The position numbers and the translations under genes are program-made. This document shows, one piece after another, positions 2,599 to 53,334 of a DNA stretch of 64,000 nt. The stretch is from a virus (taxonomy: Duplodnaviria > Caudoviricetes). Under the pieces are notes generated by a model, which was given only the letters and a program-made list of their open reading frames with translations, ran no database searches and was not told the DNA's origin. The stretch covers positions 35,928-99,927 of IMG/VR virus record IMGVR_UViG_3300012979_000004. One strand, written 5' to 3'. Every line of letters starts with the position of its first letter. Position 1 is the stretch's first letter.

Positions 2599-3147
2599 AT
2601 GGGAAAGAAGACCGTAAATAAAAAGCTTAAAAAGAAGCTGAATCGTATACGAAATCAGAAAAACTGTATTCCACCTAAAATACAAGCCAATGTTTGGGAT
2701 ATAGATAACGATGGAGTAGAAGCATATCGTAACACACGTCCGTACCAAGAACATGTACCAATAATGGAACGGAAAGGAAAGTTAAATAAAAAACCTTGGT
2801 ATATTCTTACTAAAGAAGAACATATCACAATTGACAAATTACGTAAATCTACAAAGATGACACGTGATGATTACATTAAAGGGTACATAAAACAAAAAAT
2901 GGATAAATGGGAGTTAAAACATAAAAAACCACAAGAAAACGATTTATTCTACAATCAAGAACTCCCAAAATGGACAAGTGACCGTGAACAACATCACGAT
3001 AACATAATGTCTATTATATCTAAAAAGTATATAAAACGTTACACAAAACCGTTAATAAATTATGTATTCGACTCTAAGCATACGTTAAAAAATAATGTAA
3101 CTAAAAAGCAGGTGAGCACCCGATATGGACTGGGAATAGCTGCATAA
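2599..3147 (+). CDS. Lys-rich hypothetical protein (182 aa)
   Basis: Tightly coupled to the upstream gene; ends ...GIAA-TAA. Confidence 0.75.
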   Translation: MGKKTVNKKLKKKLNRIRNQKNCIPPKIQANVWDIDNDGVEAYRNTRPYQEHVPIMERKGKLNKKPWYILTKEEHITIDKLRKSTKMTRDDYIKGYIKQKMDKWELKHKKPQENDLFYNQELPKWTSDREQHHDNIMSIISKKYIKRYTKPLINYVFDSKHTLKNNVTKKQVSTRYGLGIAA

Positions 3148-3226
3148 TTTATAAAACAAAAAGATTTAATAGTTTTCCAGGATACCACTGGGCATGTTAA
3201 AATATAATCTAGGACACCACTAGATT

Positions 3227-3298
3227 TTGGACATTCTGCTGGTAGAAGTAGTTAAATTTAATTTAACTATGATTGGTTCGACTCCGATCTGTCCAACA
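3227..3298 (+). ncRNA. Non-canonical tRNA-like RNA A (Gln-like acceptor, UUA at hairpin apex)
   Basis: Stem tggaca/tgtcca + A + CA; D-like arm ttct-GCTGGT-agaa; long hairpin gtagttaa-ATTTAAT-ttaactat; T arm gattgg-TTCGACT-ccgatc. Confidence 0.6.
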
Positions 3299-3348
3299 TA
3301 TTTATGGTATCTTGCAAAAAATAATAAACAATTTAAAATAATAAAAAG

Positions 3349-3708
3349 ATGAAAAAAACGGAATTACAATTATTACTAAAAGATCTTTGCGCAAGAGTAC
3401 CATATGGCGTAAAGTGCAATGTTGACGGCAGAATAAGACTGTTAACAGGTGTACAATCAGACGGAACATTAAAGTTTAAAAGTTCAAAATTATCATTTTC
3501 GATAAAAGAATGTTGTATAAAACCATATCTATATCCAATAAAAAATATGACAAAAATCGATTTTCTAAAATTTTGCTCTATAACAGCGGATGATACGATG
3601 TTGTTAGTGAAAAAACAAATTGATTTTTTGGAAGAGCACAATTATGATCACGGACATTTGATTGAACACGATTTGGCGATAGACGCTACAGGTTTAGATG
3701 TATACTAA
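3349..3708 (+). CDS. Hypothetical protein of a type common in Bacteroidota phages
   Basis: Motifs LLLKDLCARVPYGVK, IKPYLYP and LIEHDLAI; ends TAA. Confidence 0.75.
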   Translation: MKKTELQLLLKDLCARVPYGVKCNVDGRIRLLTGVQSDGTLKFKSSKLSFSIKECCIKPYLYPIKNMTKIDFLKFCSITADDTMLLVKKQIDFLEEHNYDHGHLIEHDLAIDATGLDVY

Positions 3709-3711
3709 AAT

Positions 3712-3876
3712 ATGATAACAAATGCGATTGTATTAAATAACACAATACATGTGTTTATAAAAAGTGACTCAAATTGTTTAAAGTGTTCATTGCGAAATAA
3801 ATGTAAGTCTTTTCATGAAGATTCACCATGTATGATATTTGAAGATCATGGGCATTTTGAAATAAAAAAGACTTGA
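3712..3876 (+). CDS. Small Cys-rich protein (54 aa)
   Basis: MITNAIVLNNTIHVF...CLKCSLRNKC...C...HF-TGA; starts 3 nt after the previous stop; below the ORF-track cutoff. Confidence 0.55.
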   Translation: MITNAIVLNNTIHVFIKSDSNCLKCSLRNKCKSFHEDSPCMIFEDHGHFEIKKT

Positions 3877-3948
3877 TTTTATCGCAAAATTAAAGTGTAG
3901 GGTTTATACATTCCTATAACAAAGTATTAACGCAAAGAACTATAAGTC

Positions 3949-5826
3949 ATGTGTATACGAAATTGTAGGATAGACGTCTATGATATAGAAGTTTTTCCAA
4001 ATGTATTTCACTGTTGTACAAAAAATACCGAAACTGGAGAAATAAGTAAATTTGAAATATCTGAAAGAAAAAATCAATTAGATGAATTGGTATCATATTT
4101 TACCAATAAAGAATCAAAGATAATCTGCGGATACAACAATCATCATTATGACGATGTTATAATAAATTATATAATAGATTATCATTCTAAACTAATTAGA
4201 TTGCCATACTGGAAGATATGTAAATCTTTATTCGGTTTATCACAAACTATTGTAACAGCAGAAGATGGAGACGTTGACAGATTTAAAAAATGGAAGTATG
4301 CGCATTACTTCTATTCTATAGATTTGTTAACTATGCAATTTAGTTCTAAATTACGAGTAGGTCTAAAAGAACTTCAATTAACCATGCATTATAAAAATGT
4401 GCAGGAATATGAAGGTGATTTTGAAAACAATCTTCCTACAAATGAAATAGACAAAATGATCGCATATAATATAAACGATGTAAATTCTACAACAGAGCTA
4501 TTAAACATTCTTAAAAAAGATATAGAATTACGTTTGTTTATATACGATGAATATCACATTGACGCATTGTCGATGGATAGTGTTAAGTTTGGAGAAAAAC
4601 TACTAGCAGAACGTTATTGTGAAAGCGCACGCATACCAATGCGATTGTTAAAGACAATGCGTTCACCAATGGACAATATCCCTTTAAAAGATGTTATATT
4701 TCCATTTATAGAATATAAAAATCCAAAATTAAAAGACGTTCTCGAAGATATGAAAAGGCAAATAGTATCTTCAAAAGAACGCAAAGGCTACGAGAAGAAG
4801 TTTGTTCTCTCGAACGTGGTGTATTCAATCGGAGTTGGTGGTATACATTCAATACACGATCCAGAAATATTCCATCCGGGACCTGACGAGTATATCGGAC
4901 ACAGTGATGTGGCGTCGATGTATCCGAGCTTACTGATAAAGTATGAACTTACTCCCAGACACTTAGGTAAAACATTTTTGAAAGTCTATTCTAAACTATA
5001 TGAAGAACGAATAGAAGCAAAACATAGCGGACAGAAACTTAAGAATCTTGCCTTAAAATTGACTCTTAACTCTGTTACGGGGAAAATGCAAGAAGAAACA
5101 AGTTGGATGTACGACCCATTTAACGTTTTCAAAATACGTATTAACGGACAGTTGATACTATTGATGTTGGTGGATCGTTTGCTGGAACTTAATTGTAAGA
5201 TTGTACAAGTAAATACAGATGGTGTTGTTTATATCGCTAAGAAAACCGCTTCTGAGGCCATTCAGGGGGCTATTTCAGAAGTAGAGCGTATAACACAACT
5301 TGTTTTTGAAAGCGACAACTATGAGGCGTTTTATCAATACGCAATCAACGATTATTTTGGAGTTGTTGAGGGTTATTCGCAATCTAATGACCCTAAATTG
5401 ATAGAAAAGAAAGGAATGTTTATCACTGAAACAAAAATAGGTAAAGGACTAGCACCGGTTATTATACCTAAAGCAGTGATTAATTATTTCTTAACAAAAC
5501 AGCCTGTATCTGAATATATCAGACAGCAGACCGATATAAAAGATTTCTTAATGGCACAAAGAGTCAATAAGAAATTCAAAGTCCGACACGGCAATCAATT
5601 TGTACAACGTATAAATCGATATTATGCTAGCACAAACGGTTATTCACTTTATAAAGTAGATTCAGACGGTAGTGAAACAAACATGTTAACTAAATCTGGA
5701 GTAACAATACTTAATAAAATGGACGACTTAAATATACAAGACAGGCATATAAATTATAACTATTATATAAGCGAAGCTAATAAGATAGTATATGATTTAG
5801 CTTGTCAACAATTAACTCTATTTTAA
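3949..5826 (+). CDS. polB: Family B DNA polymerase (crAss type)
   Basis: Exo I YDIEV, GYNNHHYD; polymerase motifs DVASMYPS, KLTLNSVTGK and NTDG. Confidence 0.93.
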   Translation: MCIRNCRIDVYDIEVFPNVFHCCTKNTETGEISKFEISERKNQLDELVSYFTNKESKIICGYNNHHYDDVIINYIIDYHSKLIRLPYWKICKSLFGLSQTIVTAEDGDVDRFKKWKYAHYFYSIDLLTMQFSSKLRVGLKELQLTMHYKNVQEYEGDFENNLPTNEIDKMIAYNINDVNSTTELLNILKKDIELRLFIYDEYHIDALSMDSVKFGEKLLAERYCESARIPMRLLKTMRSPMDNIPLKDVIFPFIEYKNPKLKDVLEDMKRQIVSSKERKGYEKKFVLSNVVYSIGVGGIHSIHDPEIFHPGPDEYIGHSDVASMYPSLLIKYELTPRHLGKTFLKVYSKLYEERIEAKHSGQKLKNLALKLTLNSVTGKMQEETSWMYDPFNVFKIRINGQLILLMLVDRLLELNCKIVQVNTDGVVYIAKKTASEAIQGAISEVERITQLVFESDNYEAFYQYAINDYFGVVEGYSQSNDPKLIEKKGMFITETKIGKGLAPVIIPKAVINYFLTKQPVSEYIRQQTDIKDFLMAQRVNKKFKVRHGNQFVQRINRYYASTNGYSLYKVDSDGSETNMLTKSGVTILNKMDDLNIQDRHINYNYYISEANKIVYDLACQQLTLF

Positions 5827-9261: not shown

Positions 9262-9314
9262 CAATATTTCAGTAACGACTAATGGTCAGTGGTGGAGGAA
9301 TCTAGTGATTCCCT

Positions 9315-9361
9315 GGAGCATGTAAGGAACGTTGAGGGGTTCGATTCCCCTCCATGCTACA
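9315..9361 (+). ncRNA. tRNA-like minihelix B (acceptor + T arm only)
   Basis: agcatg/catgct + A + CA; T arm gagggg-TTCGATT-cccctc; an 11-nt linker replaces the D and anticodon arms. Confidence 0.55.
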
Positions 9362-9365
9362 AATA

Positions 9366-9471
9366 GCGGTGTCAGGATGTTGTGAAACATATGACAAGAT
9401 AGGTTTTCTAATTTCAGGCATTTTCGACTCATTTTTCCTATCTGTTTGGTTCGATTCCAAACGACCGCACA
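9366..9471 (+). ncRNA. Non-canonical tRNA-like RNA C with a 33-nt loop
   Basis: gcggt/accgc + A + CA; arm gtca..atgtt-gtga-aacat..tgac; stem agatagg/cctatct closing a 33-nt pyrimidine-rich loop; T arm gtttgg-TTCGATT-ccaaac. Confidence 0.55.
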
Positions 9472-9665: not shown

Positions 9666-9739
9666 GGACTTGTAGCTCAGTTGGTTAGAGCAACAGACTC
9701 ATAATCTGGAGGTCCCTGGTTCAAGCCCAGGCTGGTCCA
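9666..9739 (+). tRNA. tRNA with CAT anticodon (Ile2-like; Met not excluded)
   Basis: Full cloverleaf: GGACTTG acceptor, TAGCTCAGTTGGTTAGAGC D arm, cagaCT-CAT-AAtctg, T arm cctgg-TTCAAGC-ccagg; no encoded CCA. The GACTCATAATC arm and GCTCAG..TTAGAGC resemble tRNA-Ile2. Confidence 0.92.
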
Positions 9740-9768
9740 CAACTATAACAATAAAGAGCTATAAGCCT

Positions 9769-50434: not shown

Positions 50435-53334
50435 ATCTAATATAGAATAAAACTATTACAATATGCTAACAATTGATCTTCGGAGTATGCTCCATTTCTA
50501 TCCATTCCGAATACATACAGATCAACCGGATTTGTTTGTTGTTGCGATGTTGGAACAGTGACAGTGCACGATCTTACATTACTTGAACCAAGGTCTATTT
50601 TAAAATCCGAACTAGTAACAGCAGACCCAACCAACTGTATATCCAATAGGTTGTCGTATACCATCTATAATTCTCCAAGAGATGCGACGTACCAGTCTAA
50701 TTCAACACCGCCTATATTAAACTCTACATTATCCTTCATGTAAACAGATAAAGGTGATGTGTATTGCAACCTAGGAGAGTTTGTAAGTAGATCTACTAAT
50801 CGCTTAGTTTCATTATAACCGTCAAAATCCATGAGTGCACTTTCTGTTGTATCATATGTTTGTACGCCTGGTATGTCTGTAAGTGTTGCAGCAGGACCTT
50901 CACTCCTGTCGAGCAACACTCCTGTTACCTAACGGTTAATTTTTGTAATGTTTGGATTTATCACAAACTAGGCATTTTCACTAACAACCAATGCCCCCTT
51001 TGGTGTTTTATTTTCTAATGGTTTATACCCAGAGTTTTTATATTCATCCACACTCTGTAAAGATGAATCTTCATATATAATGTAAACGCCGTTGTCCATT
51101 TTTTTATACTCCACATTGACTGTAGTAAGATTACCTTCTGGTACAACAGTTTTATTGTAACTCAATATATATCCTTTGATACTAGGTGCAGATATAGTAT
51201 ATTCTTCAGAACCATCTCCTAATACTTCAATGCTCTAGCCATCGGTAAGGTCTGTTGTATTTCCATCCTTGTCTGTTACAGTTATCACCTGAGATTTAAT
51301 AGTAGCTAACTTATCAGCGTCTTCTTCGTTAGAACTAATGGTAACTTTAAGCTTAGGTTTACCTATACCTACTCTAGCTTTAAATTCATCAATATCTATG
51401 TGAATCATAGGTAAGATGCTCATAGAATACCATCCTGTTGCGTTTTCTCTTGCAGTATACCACCTAAATTCTCCAGGTGTTGTTTCATTGCCACCAGCAC
51501 TAGCCCATATCGACAAATTGTTATATACATTGCTGGTAGCAACCGAGTCTGGTGAATCATACGTCTATCCGAGTGCAAATGTTATATTTGTATCCAAACC
51601 TATACTACGTATCTTGTCTATAAAATAATTATAACTATCTCGATACAAATAAGCTTCGCCAACAGTTTGTATATAACCTTTTGCAGGAATCCCCATAAAC
51701 GTAGTATCTAGATATGCCAATACATTGAATAAAGGACCTCTCCACGGACCCTACATTCCCAGCTGCTCTTGTGTGTACATTGCTATTTGTTCAAATGCTG
51801 AGATTAAATCCTATGTATTTCTAAATCCATTATAGTCGTTTATTGCAAGACTGGCTAGCGGGTATGAGTATTTTACATAATTCAAAATATTCACATTTCT
51901 TTGTAACCAATTCTGTATATCCTATGTATAATACGGTTCGCTGTATACCTGCCATTTCATGTTATCGTTTTCAGTTGATATATAAGGAGCATTCAGCTCA
52001 ACACATATACACCTTTCTCCATATATATCACCCAAACCATCTTCGTAGACAACTATATACTTTGGAACAAGTGTTGTACGACCTCTTTCCACAGCATCTT
52101 CTAATTTGTCAAACTTAGAACCGTCTTCATTAGCTAAATATATAGCAGGTTTTTTTAATACATATACAACATCGACATTATTGACAACACCGGTTGGTAC
52201 AATTGTAATATCATCCACATAGTTGTATTTGTTAACGTCTCCAAATGAAGCCACGTACGTTTCTTTACCATCGGCTTTTACATTTCCTCCGCCGTACGTG
52301 TATATAATGCGGTCTTCACCAACTGTTTTTGTAAGTTGTAAGTTGTCCTCAAGAACACTTCCGTCAGAATCAAGTTTCTTAAGAGTTACCTTAGGACCAT
52401 TACCACCATTGGCACCGCTTATATCTGAAAACGTACCGTCAGTAGTAACAGTAAACTGTATATACGGGTGTTTACAAGCTATATCTACAGATGGCGTAGC
52501 TATAGTAGATTGGTCTGTAAATGCGTAAACGTCACAACTGATAGAATAGTAAGAATCTACTTCTGTTTCTGTAACAGGAGCTACCGCTACTATAGTCTTA
52601 GAATCACGTTTTGAAACAATAAAATTATCACTTCTAGGAATAAAGCATATACCTTTTTTCTAAGCCGCTTCTTCCAAAGTGTGTACAATCGGTTTAGTAT
52701 GTCCAGCTGGAACAAAGTTTACAGTAGGATAAAAAGTCTAAGACGGACCTACCACATCGGGAGCGGTTATTGTAACATCTGTTACTTGCTGTGCGTTTAC
52801 CGTAATATCAAATGTACGAATGGATGAGTTTACACCATCCCAGTCTTCCCAAACAGGGCACGTCTGTATGGTAACAACATCGCTCCATGTTGCATTTTCT
52901 CTAGCTGGTTCTACTACAATATAACCGAGCTTAGTGTCAATACTTGTTCTATTTTGATATTCTTCAGTCTGAACAGTATGGTTGACAATTCTGAATTTAA
53001 GCGCGTCCAAAGCTATATTGTTGACGTTTATCTTAACTCGATCACCCTCGTTTACTTTGTTTGAGCTGGGTGTAACGTTGTATTCTATAGCCGATACATT
53101 AACGTCTACAAGATGTAAAAGGGGTTGGCCAGAACTGTCTTTTGCTAATTCTACCAAATACTTCTCATACGAAGTAACGTCTCGTGTTGGGCGAATCCAA
53201 CCCCTAATGTCTTTATTTATACGTTCTGTTTTAATAAGGTCTATCAGCCAACCAAATTCATCAGACGTAAGGGTTACAGGGTTATTCTAAGAACCCTGCT
53301 CCCATTTATATGTTTTAAGTCTATTAAGTGTCAT
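50431..53334 (-). CDS. Putative tail fibre / receptor-binding protein, 967 aa (TAG read as Gln)
   Basis: Six fragments in one frame, ATG 53334 to TGA 50431; beta-rich Ig-like N-terminal half; two related C-terminal modules (DYNGFRNT.. and DFDGYNET..WYVASLGEL). Confidence 0.72.

Follow-up and report, generated by a model that had tools for sequence, protein, structure and literature searches.

A tRNA-like element with a UUA loop, best read as derived from tRNA-Gln(UUG), in a TAG-recoded crAss-like phage

Introduction

The classical Gln-inserting ochre suppressor of E. coli, supB (glnU UUA), reads UAA and, by wobble, UAG. Suppressor tRNA(CUA) genes are known from phages that read TAG as Gln (code 15) (Borges et al., bioRxiv 10.1101/2021.08.26.457843; Peters et al. 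2022, PMC9523058), and Borges et al. also tabulated the share of phage genomes with tRNAs predicted to suppress TAA. The change of a tRNA-Gln to a UUA anticodon in a crAss-like phage without TAA reassignment has already been published, as a TTG(Gln)-to-TTA(Sup) point mutant in the alpha-group phage OKSC01000115 (Yutin et al. 2021, PMC7886860), and "unused" second suppressor tRNAs of crAss-like phages have been discussed (PMC12386605). Sequences that resemble tRNAs can also act as processing signals: RNase P and RNase Z cleave the t-elements of plant mitochondria (Forner et al. 2007, PMC1920247).

We analyzed a tRNA-like element located in a stretch of 64,000 nucleotides (hereafter the window), which corresponds to positions 35928-99927 of the circular 99.9-kb genome of a crAss-like phage. 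Positions are those of the window unless marked as genome positions. An earlier note made from the letters of the window had described the element as a non-canonical RNA with a Gln-type acceptor and UUA at the anticodon position, and had proposed that it could be an unusual suppressor, a decoy for a synthetase or an anticodon nuclease, or a decayed suppressor.

Results

Source phage and use of stop codons

The DNA polymerase of this phage shares 73% identity with the polymerases of cr130_1 and cr131_1, the latter phage being classified in the Crassvirales (Suoliviridae, Oafivirinae), and strains of the phage are found in bovine gut metagenomes from several studies. In the first 13.7 kb of the window, the genes lie on the + strand and use the standard code. 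The late genes, on the - strand, require read-through of TAG, with TAG-recoded reading frames of up to 6228 codons. At most of their 243 in-frame TAG codons, the aligned position of the closest relative (G001) is Q or TAG, in agreement with the earlier proposal that this phage reads TAG as Gln.

TAA terminates 60 of the 84 genes and is the main true stop of the genome. We found no in-frame TAA in real reading frames, either in the genome or in alignments with G001, where apparent in-frame TAA and TGA codons fall solely in spurious off-frame ORFs, and back-up stops after TAA were not commoner than in G001, which is without the element. With TAA as the main stop, no real in-frame TAA and no surplus of back-up stops, the genome shows no sign of being dependent on, or adapted to, ochre read-through.

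A separate amber suppressor tRNA

The earlier statement that no canonical CUA tRNA is visible in the window holds. Genome-wide, a Gln-type tRNA(CUA) gene is located ~19.4 kb before the window start (Table 1). It is missed by ARAGORN with default settings and called as tRNA(cta) at -ps85, and the Rfam tRNA family (RF00005) matches it at genome 16509-16577 (-) with 24.2 bits. It aligns with a default-called tRNA(cta) of G001 and with one in G004, and the three genes share U1-G72, G2-C71, A73, a Gln-type D arm and the loop CUCUAAC. The CUA genes differ by compensatory changes, such as G2-C71 against C2-G71 among those of the acceptor stem and GGGAG/CUCCC against GGAGG/CCUCC in the anticodon stem, so that this gene, unlike the element, is conserved with covariation among related recoded genomes. 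All three have a degenerate T stem, the version in G005 being more ordinary; that of the present genome lacks a proper T stem, and its near-universal U55 is replaced by C. Despite this odd T arm, its orthologues and paired substitutions make the tRNA(CUA) very likely to be functional.

The gene lies near the head of a - strand block, with TAG-free genes before it and TAG-containing genes after it. Heading the TAG-containing late block, this Gln-type tRNA(CUA) explains TAG decoding without the element, and with its orthologues and compensatory changes it removes the premise that the phage needs the element to decode TAG. Adjoining the suppressor, at genome 16768-16844 (-), is a tRNA-like gene (ARAGORN Cys(aca), 36.2 bits), whose counterpart in G001 (50789-50877) keeps acceptor, D and T arms and has a longer unrelated segment as its anticodon domain.

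Table 1. Coordinates of the element, its parts and the other features discussed.
Feature	Position	Strand	Description and basis
Twin hairpins, loop GAYACCA	3176-3192 and 3206-3226	+	Immediately 5' of the element; no others in the genome
Putative tRNA-Gln-derived tRNA-like gene (the element)	3228-3297	+	Sequence, relaxed ARAGORN call, fold, Gln-type model (32.3 bits), strain invariance
Acceptor	3228-3233 (TGGACA) paired with 3290-3295 (TGTCCA)	+	6 bp; sequence
Degenerate D region	3234-3251	+	Holds GCTGGT/TGGTAG; model alignment, ARAGORN drawing, minimum-energy fold
Anticodon-like arm	3251-3267	+	5-bp stem, G3251-C3267 to A3255-U3263; sequence, ARAGORN, fold
T arm	3271-3289	+	GATTGG / TTCGACT / CCGATC; 6-bp stem, canonical UUCGACU loop; sequence, relaxed ARAGORN call
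3' tail	3296-3298	+	A3296 at the discriminator position, C3297, then A3298; sequence
o3349	3349-3708	+	Downstream small gene, 119 aa; ORF
Top-half tRNA mimics	genome 26977-27016, 29676-29735, 45244-45285, 45293-45395	+	Genome scan
Gln-type tRNA(CUA)	genome 16508-16578 (L084:1500-1570)	-	RF00005, ARAGORN -ps85, orthologues

Fold of the element

The element is located on the coding strand of a 201-nt spacer (3148-3348). The four-arm fold, the Gln-like acceptor, the UUCGACU T loop, the AU-UUA-AU apex and the 6+6 stack that had been described are all present in the sequence, with the start shifted by 1 nt, from 3227 to the T at 3228 where the acceptor begins. The T stem is stacked directly on the 6-bp acceptor, and a 7/5 reading would place a U3234-C3289 mismatch between them. 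The anticodon-like arm carries a 7-nt loop, AUUUAAU (3256-3262), with U33, UUA at 3258-3260 and A37. Through the palindrome TAGTTAAAT-TTA-ATTTAACTA at 3249-3269, this arm can be extended to a perfect 9 bp closed by a 3-nt loop, and the apex is indeed zipped up in this way in the minimum-energy fold, as the earlier note had cautioned. In the D region the Gln-type UGGUAG is kept, and ~3 nt are lost together with the canonical D stem. Bases of this region can pair instead as UUCU/AGAA, UGC/GUA or CUGC/GUAG, giving a D stem that is shifted or has 3 bp, and an alternative cloverleaf of 6+4+4+6 bp has zero mismatches. RNAfold predicted a four-way junction at -21.3 kcal/mol (z = -3.6), and none of 200 shuffled sequences was equally stable. 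Canonical features are thus the anticodon stem GUUAA/UUAAC, the 7-nt loop with U33 and a purine at 37, and the T loop, while the 7+5 acceptor/T geometry, a 4-bp D stem, A14/R15 and nucleotide 26 are lacking.

Detection by tRNA finders

The prediction that tRNA scanners may miss the element proved correct for standard settings: ARAGORN made no call by default, and RF00005 did not match it at E<=10, whether 321 nt or the whole genome was searched (family threshold 29 bits; the Met, Leu and CUA tRNAs of the phage score 64.6, 54.4 and 24.2 bits). With relaxed settings (-ps, 95%, and -ps90), ARAGORN called a tRNA-Stop(tta) at 3228-3297 and no tRNA on the minus strand. Over the whole 99.9-kb genome, -ps90 yielded just two calls beyond the default ones (a relaxed false-call rate of ~2 per 200 kb), so the call at the element is not background noise. 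As a control, we kept the acceptor/T half and shuffled the 37-nt middle 3000 times. ARAGORN still called a tRNA in 15-17% of these sequences at -ps90 and in ~3% at -ps95, with a UUA or CUA anticodon in ~1-1.5%. The call on the element rests mostly on its acceptor/T half, and the lower half is more tRNA-like than chance, if not overwhelmingly so.

Relationship to tRNA-Gln(UUG)

Among the distinct tRNAs and tRNA-like genes of the relatives (80 loci and G001), only tRNA-Gln(UUG) genes match the ends of the element (TG(G/A)...(C/T)CA-A-C). Like phage tRNA-Gln, the element has U1-A72 (a weak first pair), G2-C71, G3-C70 and an A-C tail, so that the Gln-type acceptor of the earlier note stands and is, among the relatives' tRNAs, exclusive to tRNA-Gln(UUG) genes. 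A scan with the acceptor pattern also retrieved natural tRNA-Gln(UUG) genes with identical TGGACAT...TGTCCAA ends; the acceptor is not diagnostic by itself, as the 18 other contigs selected by the same acceptor include Ile-like anticodons. We aligned the element to a model of phage Gln-type tRNAs, which it matched with 32.3 bits (E = 7e-9); relatives' non-Gln tRNAs score 30-50 bits on this model, so that the score by itself is not specific for Gln. In this alignment the element shows three broken D-stem pairs, a 3-nt deletion and the loss of the 5' D-stem strand; from the Gln-type D arm with G10 (GUGUAAUGGUARCAC), UGGUAG alone remains.

The closest natural match was a tRNA-Gln(UUG) in L129 (68% identical), which has in common with the element the 5' TGGACATT, the 3' TGTCCAA, the D-loop TGGTAG and A32-U33-U34-U35 of the anticodon loop. 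From the L129 loop AUUUGGC to AUUUAAU there are three G/C-to-A/T transitions. The anticodon stems differ by two double changes, both of which keep the pairing and hint at selection on the anticodon arm. At position 66 the element has C instead of the A of Gln tRNAs, by which the 7/5 stack becomes 6/6. From these comparisons, the element is best read as derived from a phage tRNA-Gln(UUG). Elsewhere, a fully canonical Gln-type tRNA(UUA) was called by default on a 178-kb IMG/VR contig (L140:6337-6409, -), ~700 nt from a tRNA-Gln(UUG) and within the 16-gene tRNA array of a large phage.

Conservation among relatives and strains

No orthologue of the element was found in G001 or in the 80 related loci. 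A blastn search with the 201-nt spacer against 50,697 phage records and a search for an exact 21-nt pattern in IMG/VR yielded nothing, and blastn-short and nhmmer searches against the 80 loci matched a generic T loop and nothing more. Covariation in relatives, which the earlier note had raised, is therefore absent, and identity is seen at the strain level only.

In the contigs of three strains (runs X1, X4 and X11), the 70 nt at 3228-3297 contain 0 variable sites, against 6 in the 131 nt of flanking spacer (3163, 3195, 3205, 3217, 3299 and an A inserted at 3342), of which 3299 lies one base beyond the 3' tail of the element. The difference from the spacer has P ~0.04 and that from neighboring coding sequence is not significant (~1.6 changes expected), which makes this a weak statistic of conservation. 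A long-range helix that would enclose the element (3194-3197 with 3296-3299) was considered and discarded, its pairs being broken by the variants at 3195 and 3299.

Several strains have one extra A in the homopolymer at 3342, before the start of o3349, and gene callers then extend the o3349 ORF across 3269-3349 to an ATG inside the T arm, giving proteins of 146 aa. The N-terminus of these calls (MIGSTPICPT...) is the translated tRNA-like element and thus an annotation artefact, in which the T arm and the 3' acceptor translate identically in three strains. The strain of run X4 also lacks 30 nt at 3108-3137, near the 3' end of o2599, an in-frame length variant.

These data bear on the view that the element is a plain pseudogene, a dying copy of tRNA-Gln with no remaining role and deletion pending. 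The damaged D arm, the mismatched 7-66, the three GC-to-AT changes in the loop, the absence from relatives at slots whose tRNA content turns over fast, and a conservation that reaches P ~0.04 against spacers and no significance against coding sequence would all fit simple decay. Against it, every helix still pairs, including the 12-bp top half and the perfect 9-bp palindrome of the anticodon arm; a pair of matched changes is needed for the 6+6 shift, the variable sites reach exactly to the edges of the element and no further, and dense phage genomes seldom retain dead DNA. We consider simple decay rather unlikely.

Neighborhood of the element

The loop of hairpin A of the twin hairpins (GATACCA) shows full complementarity to TGGTATC at 3306-3312 and partial complementarity to UGGUA in the D-loop of the element. 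A scan for promoters and terminators detected no terminator-like site on the + strand here, and no T run follows the hairpin. Downstream, the two small genes o3349 and o3712 (3712-3876) have been inserted between the tRNA slot and the DNA polymerase gene (3949-5826), an arrangement seen in no genome but this one. Used as anchors, o3349 and o2599 retrieved no relatives from IMG/VR, JGI metagenome contigs or GenBank phages. As o3349 and o3712 are in one frame with a single TAA between them, we also considered a TAA-gated fusion of the two; all o3349 homologues end at the same C-terminus (...AIDATGLxIY), so the shared frame is a coincidence and this candidate was rejected.

It is very improbable that the locus holds no RNA gene and that the fold instead reflects a palindrome acting as DNA, such as an operator or another site bound by a protein, or else a terminator or mere chance. 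Such a view could point to the perfect AT-rich palindrome TAGTTAAATTTAATTTAACTA and to the twin hairpins just upstream, but it leaves aside that the T arm and the complementary acceptor strands lie on the coding strand and match natural tRNA-Gln genes, and it runs against the low rate of relaxed false calls genome-wide and the hairpin's want of both a T run and a terminator-like site.

Other tRNA-shaped elements in the genome and in relatives

Four further elements of the genome mimic the top half of a tRNA (Table 1). They are located in early-region spacers and consist of a TTCGANT loop and a 6-7-bp T stem on a 5-6-bp acceptor, with no anticodon arm. The 3' tail of the mimics and of the real tRNAs of the phage is a purine, C, then A or G, mostly A-C-A. 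The element resembles the four mimics in its ~12-bp acceptor/T stack, canonical T loop, intergenic position on the coding strand and A-C-A tail, and unlike them keeps an anticodon-like arm of canonical form, closable to a 3-nt loop. Two top-half mimics, at 9314-9363 and 9377-9462 (+) of the window, stand just before a genuine tRNA-Met (9666-9740) and score 10.7 and 12.6 bits on the Gln-type model.

In relatives, varied tRNA genes (Gln+Asn, Met, Leu, "His") lie between the o2599 homologue and the gene for the polymerase, together with tRNA-shaped genes, which have good acceptor, D and T arms together with 6- or 8-nt "anticodon" loops, truncated arms, and large or hairpin inserts. In the clearly non-decoding elements of the lineage, the anticodon arm is the variable part. 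In nearly all relatives (L001-L080; also L141:3223-3500, from cr131_1), the 30-170 nt that precede the polymerase start contain a tRNA or tRNA-shaped gene, or two of them, ending ~27 nt before the ATG. One sub-family of slot genes has the common sequence GCRCACTAC...GGTTCTTCG...GGAGAGTGGTTCGATTCC, and a conserved leader, TAGTATTAACTAAAGAACCTTAGAGTC-ATG, follows the slot genes and is found in the window at 3923-3948.

Discussion

We favor, tentatively and at somewhat less than even confidence, the reading that the element is a tRNA-Gln which has been remodelled and retained, in tRNA-like form, for RNA processing or as a small RNA. An ancestral phage tRNA-Gln(UUG) gene would have been remodelled with its top half left intact (the 12-bp acceptor/T stack, the T loop and the A-C-A tail), while the D stem collapsed after the loss of ~3 nt and the anticodon loop drifted from (A)UUUGG(C) to AUUUAAU by G/C-to-A/T transitions, arriving at UUA by happenstance. 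We infer that the element is transcribed within the early + strand operon, that it is processed, and that it does not decode efficiently. The top half would be recognized by the host's RNase P and RNase Z (or, in place of the latter, by 3' trimming with CCA addition), and the element would mark a cleavage point in the polycistronic early transcript, releasing a small stable RNA, as the top-half mimics of the lineage may do; decoding of UAA or UAG would be at most a weak side activity.

This reading is suggested by the Gln ancestry of the element, by its poor quality as a tRNA (no RF00005 match, a broken D stem, no nucleotide 26), by the separate CUA suppressor, which leaves the element unneeded for TAG, and by TAA being a real stop, the four top-half mimics, the odd slot genes of relatives and the 0 variable sites in 70 nt. 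Counting against it are the fully canonical anticodon arm (5 bp, 7-nt loop, U33, A37), the hint of selection on that arm from the two pair-keeping double changes relative to L129, and the weakness of the conservation statistic. Nor does an odd shape prove inactivity, given that the accepted CUA suppressor, without a T stem, is itself non-canonical.

A rival reading, in which the element is an active, compact, Gln-accepting ochre suppressor, draws on the canonical anticodon stem-loop with U33, UUA and A37. Expressed early, such a tRNA would read UAA, and UAG by U-G wobble, adding TAG=Gln capacity or disturbing host termination. The Gln-type acceptor end with the discriminator A of phage tRNA-Gln genes, the four helices that can all pair (6+4+4+6 bp) and the invariance in three strains also speak for this function, and a single CUA tRNA with a degenerate T arm and C for U55 has to serve 243 in-frame TAGs. 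Precedents exist in the tRNA-Gln-derived suppressors of E. coli genetics that read both UAA and UAG (supB), in the canonical Gln-type tRNA(UUA) of the 178-kb phage contig and in the published crAss-like phage tRNA whose anticodon changed from TTG(Gln) to TTA(Sup) (PMC7886860). An active suppressor is nonetheless unlikely in our assessment, if a serious contender. The element gives no RF00005 score, has lost the D stem, G10, A14/R15 and nucleotide 26, can close its loop to 3 nt and has no orthologue in G001 or the 80 related loci; TAA is the main stop of a genome with neither ochre recoding nor signs of adaptation to it. UUA pairs directly with UAA, which is never in frame in real genes, and the 243 UAG codons would be readable by wobble only. 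The stop anticodon, seen in ~1-1.5% of the shuffled middles, is unusual and not extreme.

A bolder form of this idea, which we regard as improbable, holds that the phage has two Gln-type readers of stop codons, a tRNA(CUA) without a T stem that heads the late block and an early-operon tRNA(UUA) of 70 nt without a D stem, the latter being charged with Gln despite its compact shape, starting UAG/UAA read-through early in infection and so priming the code switch or sabotaging host termination. Were this true, bacterial translation could use truncated tRNAs like those of mitochondria.

Of the three options first proposed, a decayed suppressor or tRNA comes closest to the evidence and an unusual suppressor keeps the low standing just given. 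The decoy idea, for an anticodon nuclease or a synthetase, was set aside: no host tRNA has a UUA anticodon, which leaves the nuclease version with nothing in its favor.

If the element decodes, it is a second, structurally minimal suppressor in a recoded phage, and bears on the timing of the code switch and on the tRNA shape that bacterial ribosomes and GlnRS need. If it does not, as we think more likely, it offers a snapshot of a phage tRNA gene turning into a tRNA-shaped processing element, one whose parent (tRNA-Gln) can be traced, whose top half is intact and whose lower half is drifting. Annotators should note that the tRNA responsible for a code switch is not necessarily the one that a low-threshold search labels tRNA-Sup(TTA) in a recoded crAss-like phage, and that tRNA finders run with default settings overlook this lineage's real CUA suppressor.

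Compared with known systems, the element shares with supB a tRNA-Gln body and UUA, supB being fully canonical with an intact D arm and G10. It is like the tRNA of OKSC01000115 in being a Gln-type phage tRNA with a UUA anticodon in a crAss-like phage in which TAA is not reassigned. That tRNA is canonical, one base from its sisters and in a standard-code genome, whereas the element is remodelled (D stem lost, 6+6 stack, three loop changes), scores below threshold and resides in a TAG-recoded genome with a CUA suppressor. With the CUA suppressors of code 15 phages it shares the phage group and the amino-acid type, but its anticodon is UUA and relatives carry the CUA gene and not the element. Its resemblance to the top-half mimics of its own genome lies in the TTCGANT-type loop, the T stem stacked on the acceptor and the location in a + strand early spacer; the mimics have unrelated inserts or an 11-nt linker where the element keeps D and anticodon arms and a traceable tRNA-Gln ancestry. 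Like plant mitochondrial t-elements, finally, it is apparently tRNA-derived, keeps the acceptor/T domain and lies between genes of a polycistronic unit, where decoding is unneeded; it differs from them in its complete anticodon-like arm and its phage setting, and its cleavage, established for t-elements, is here a presumed step.
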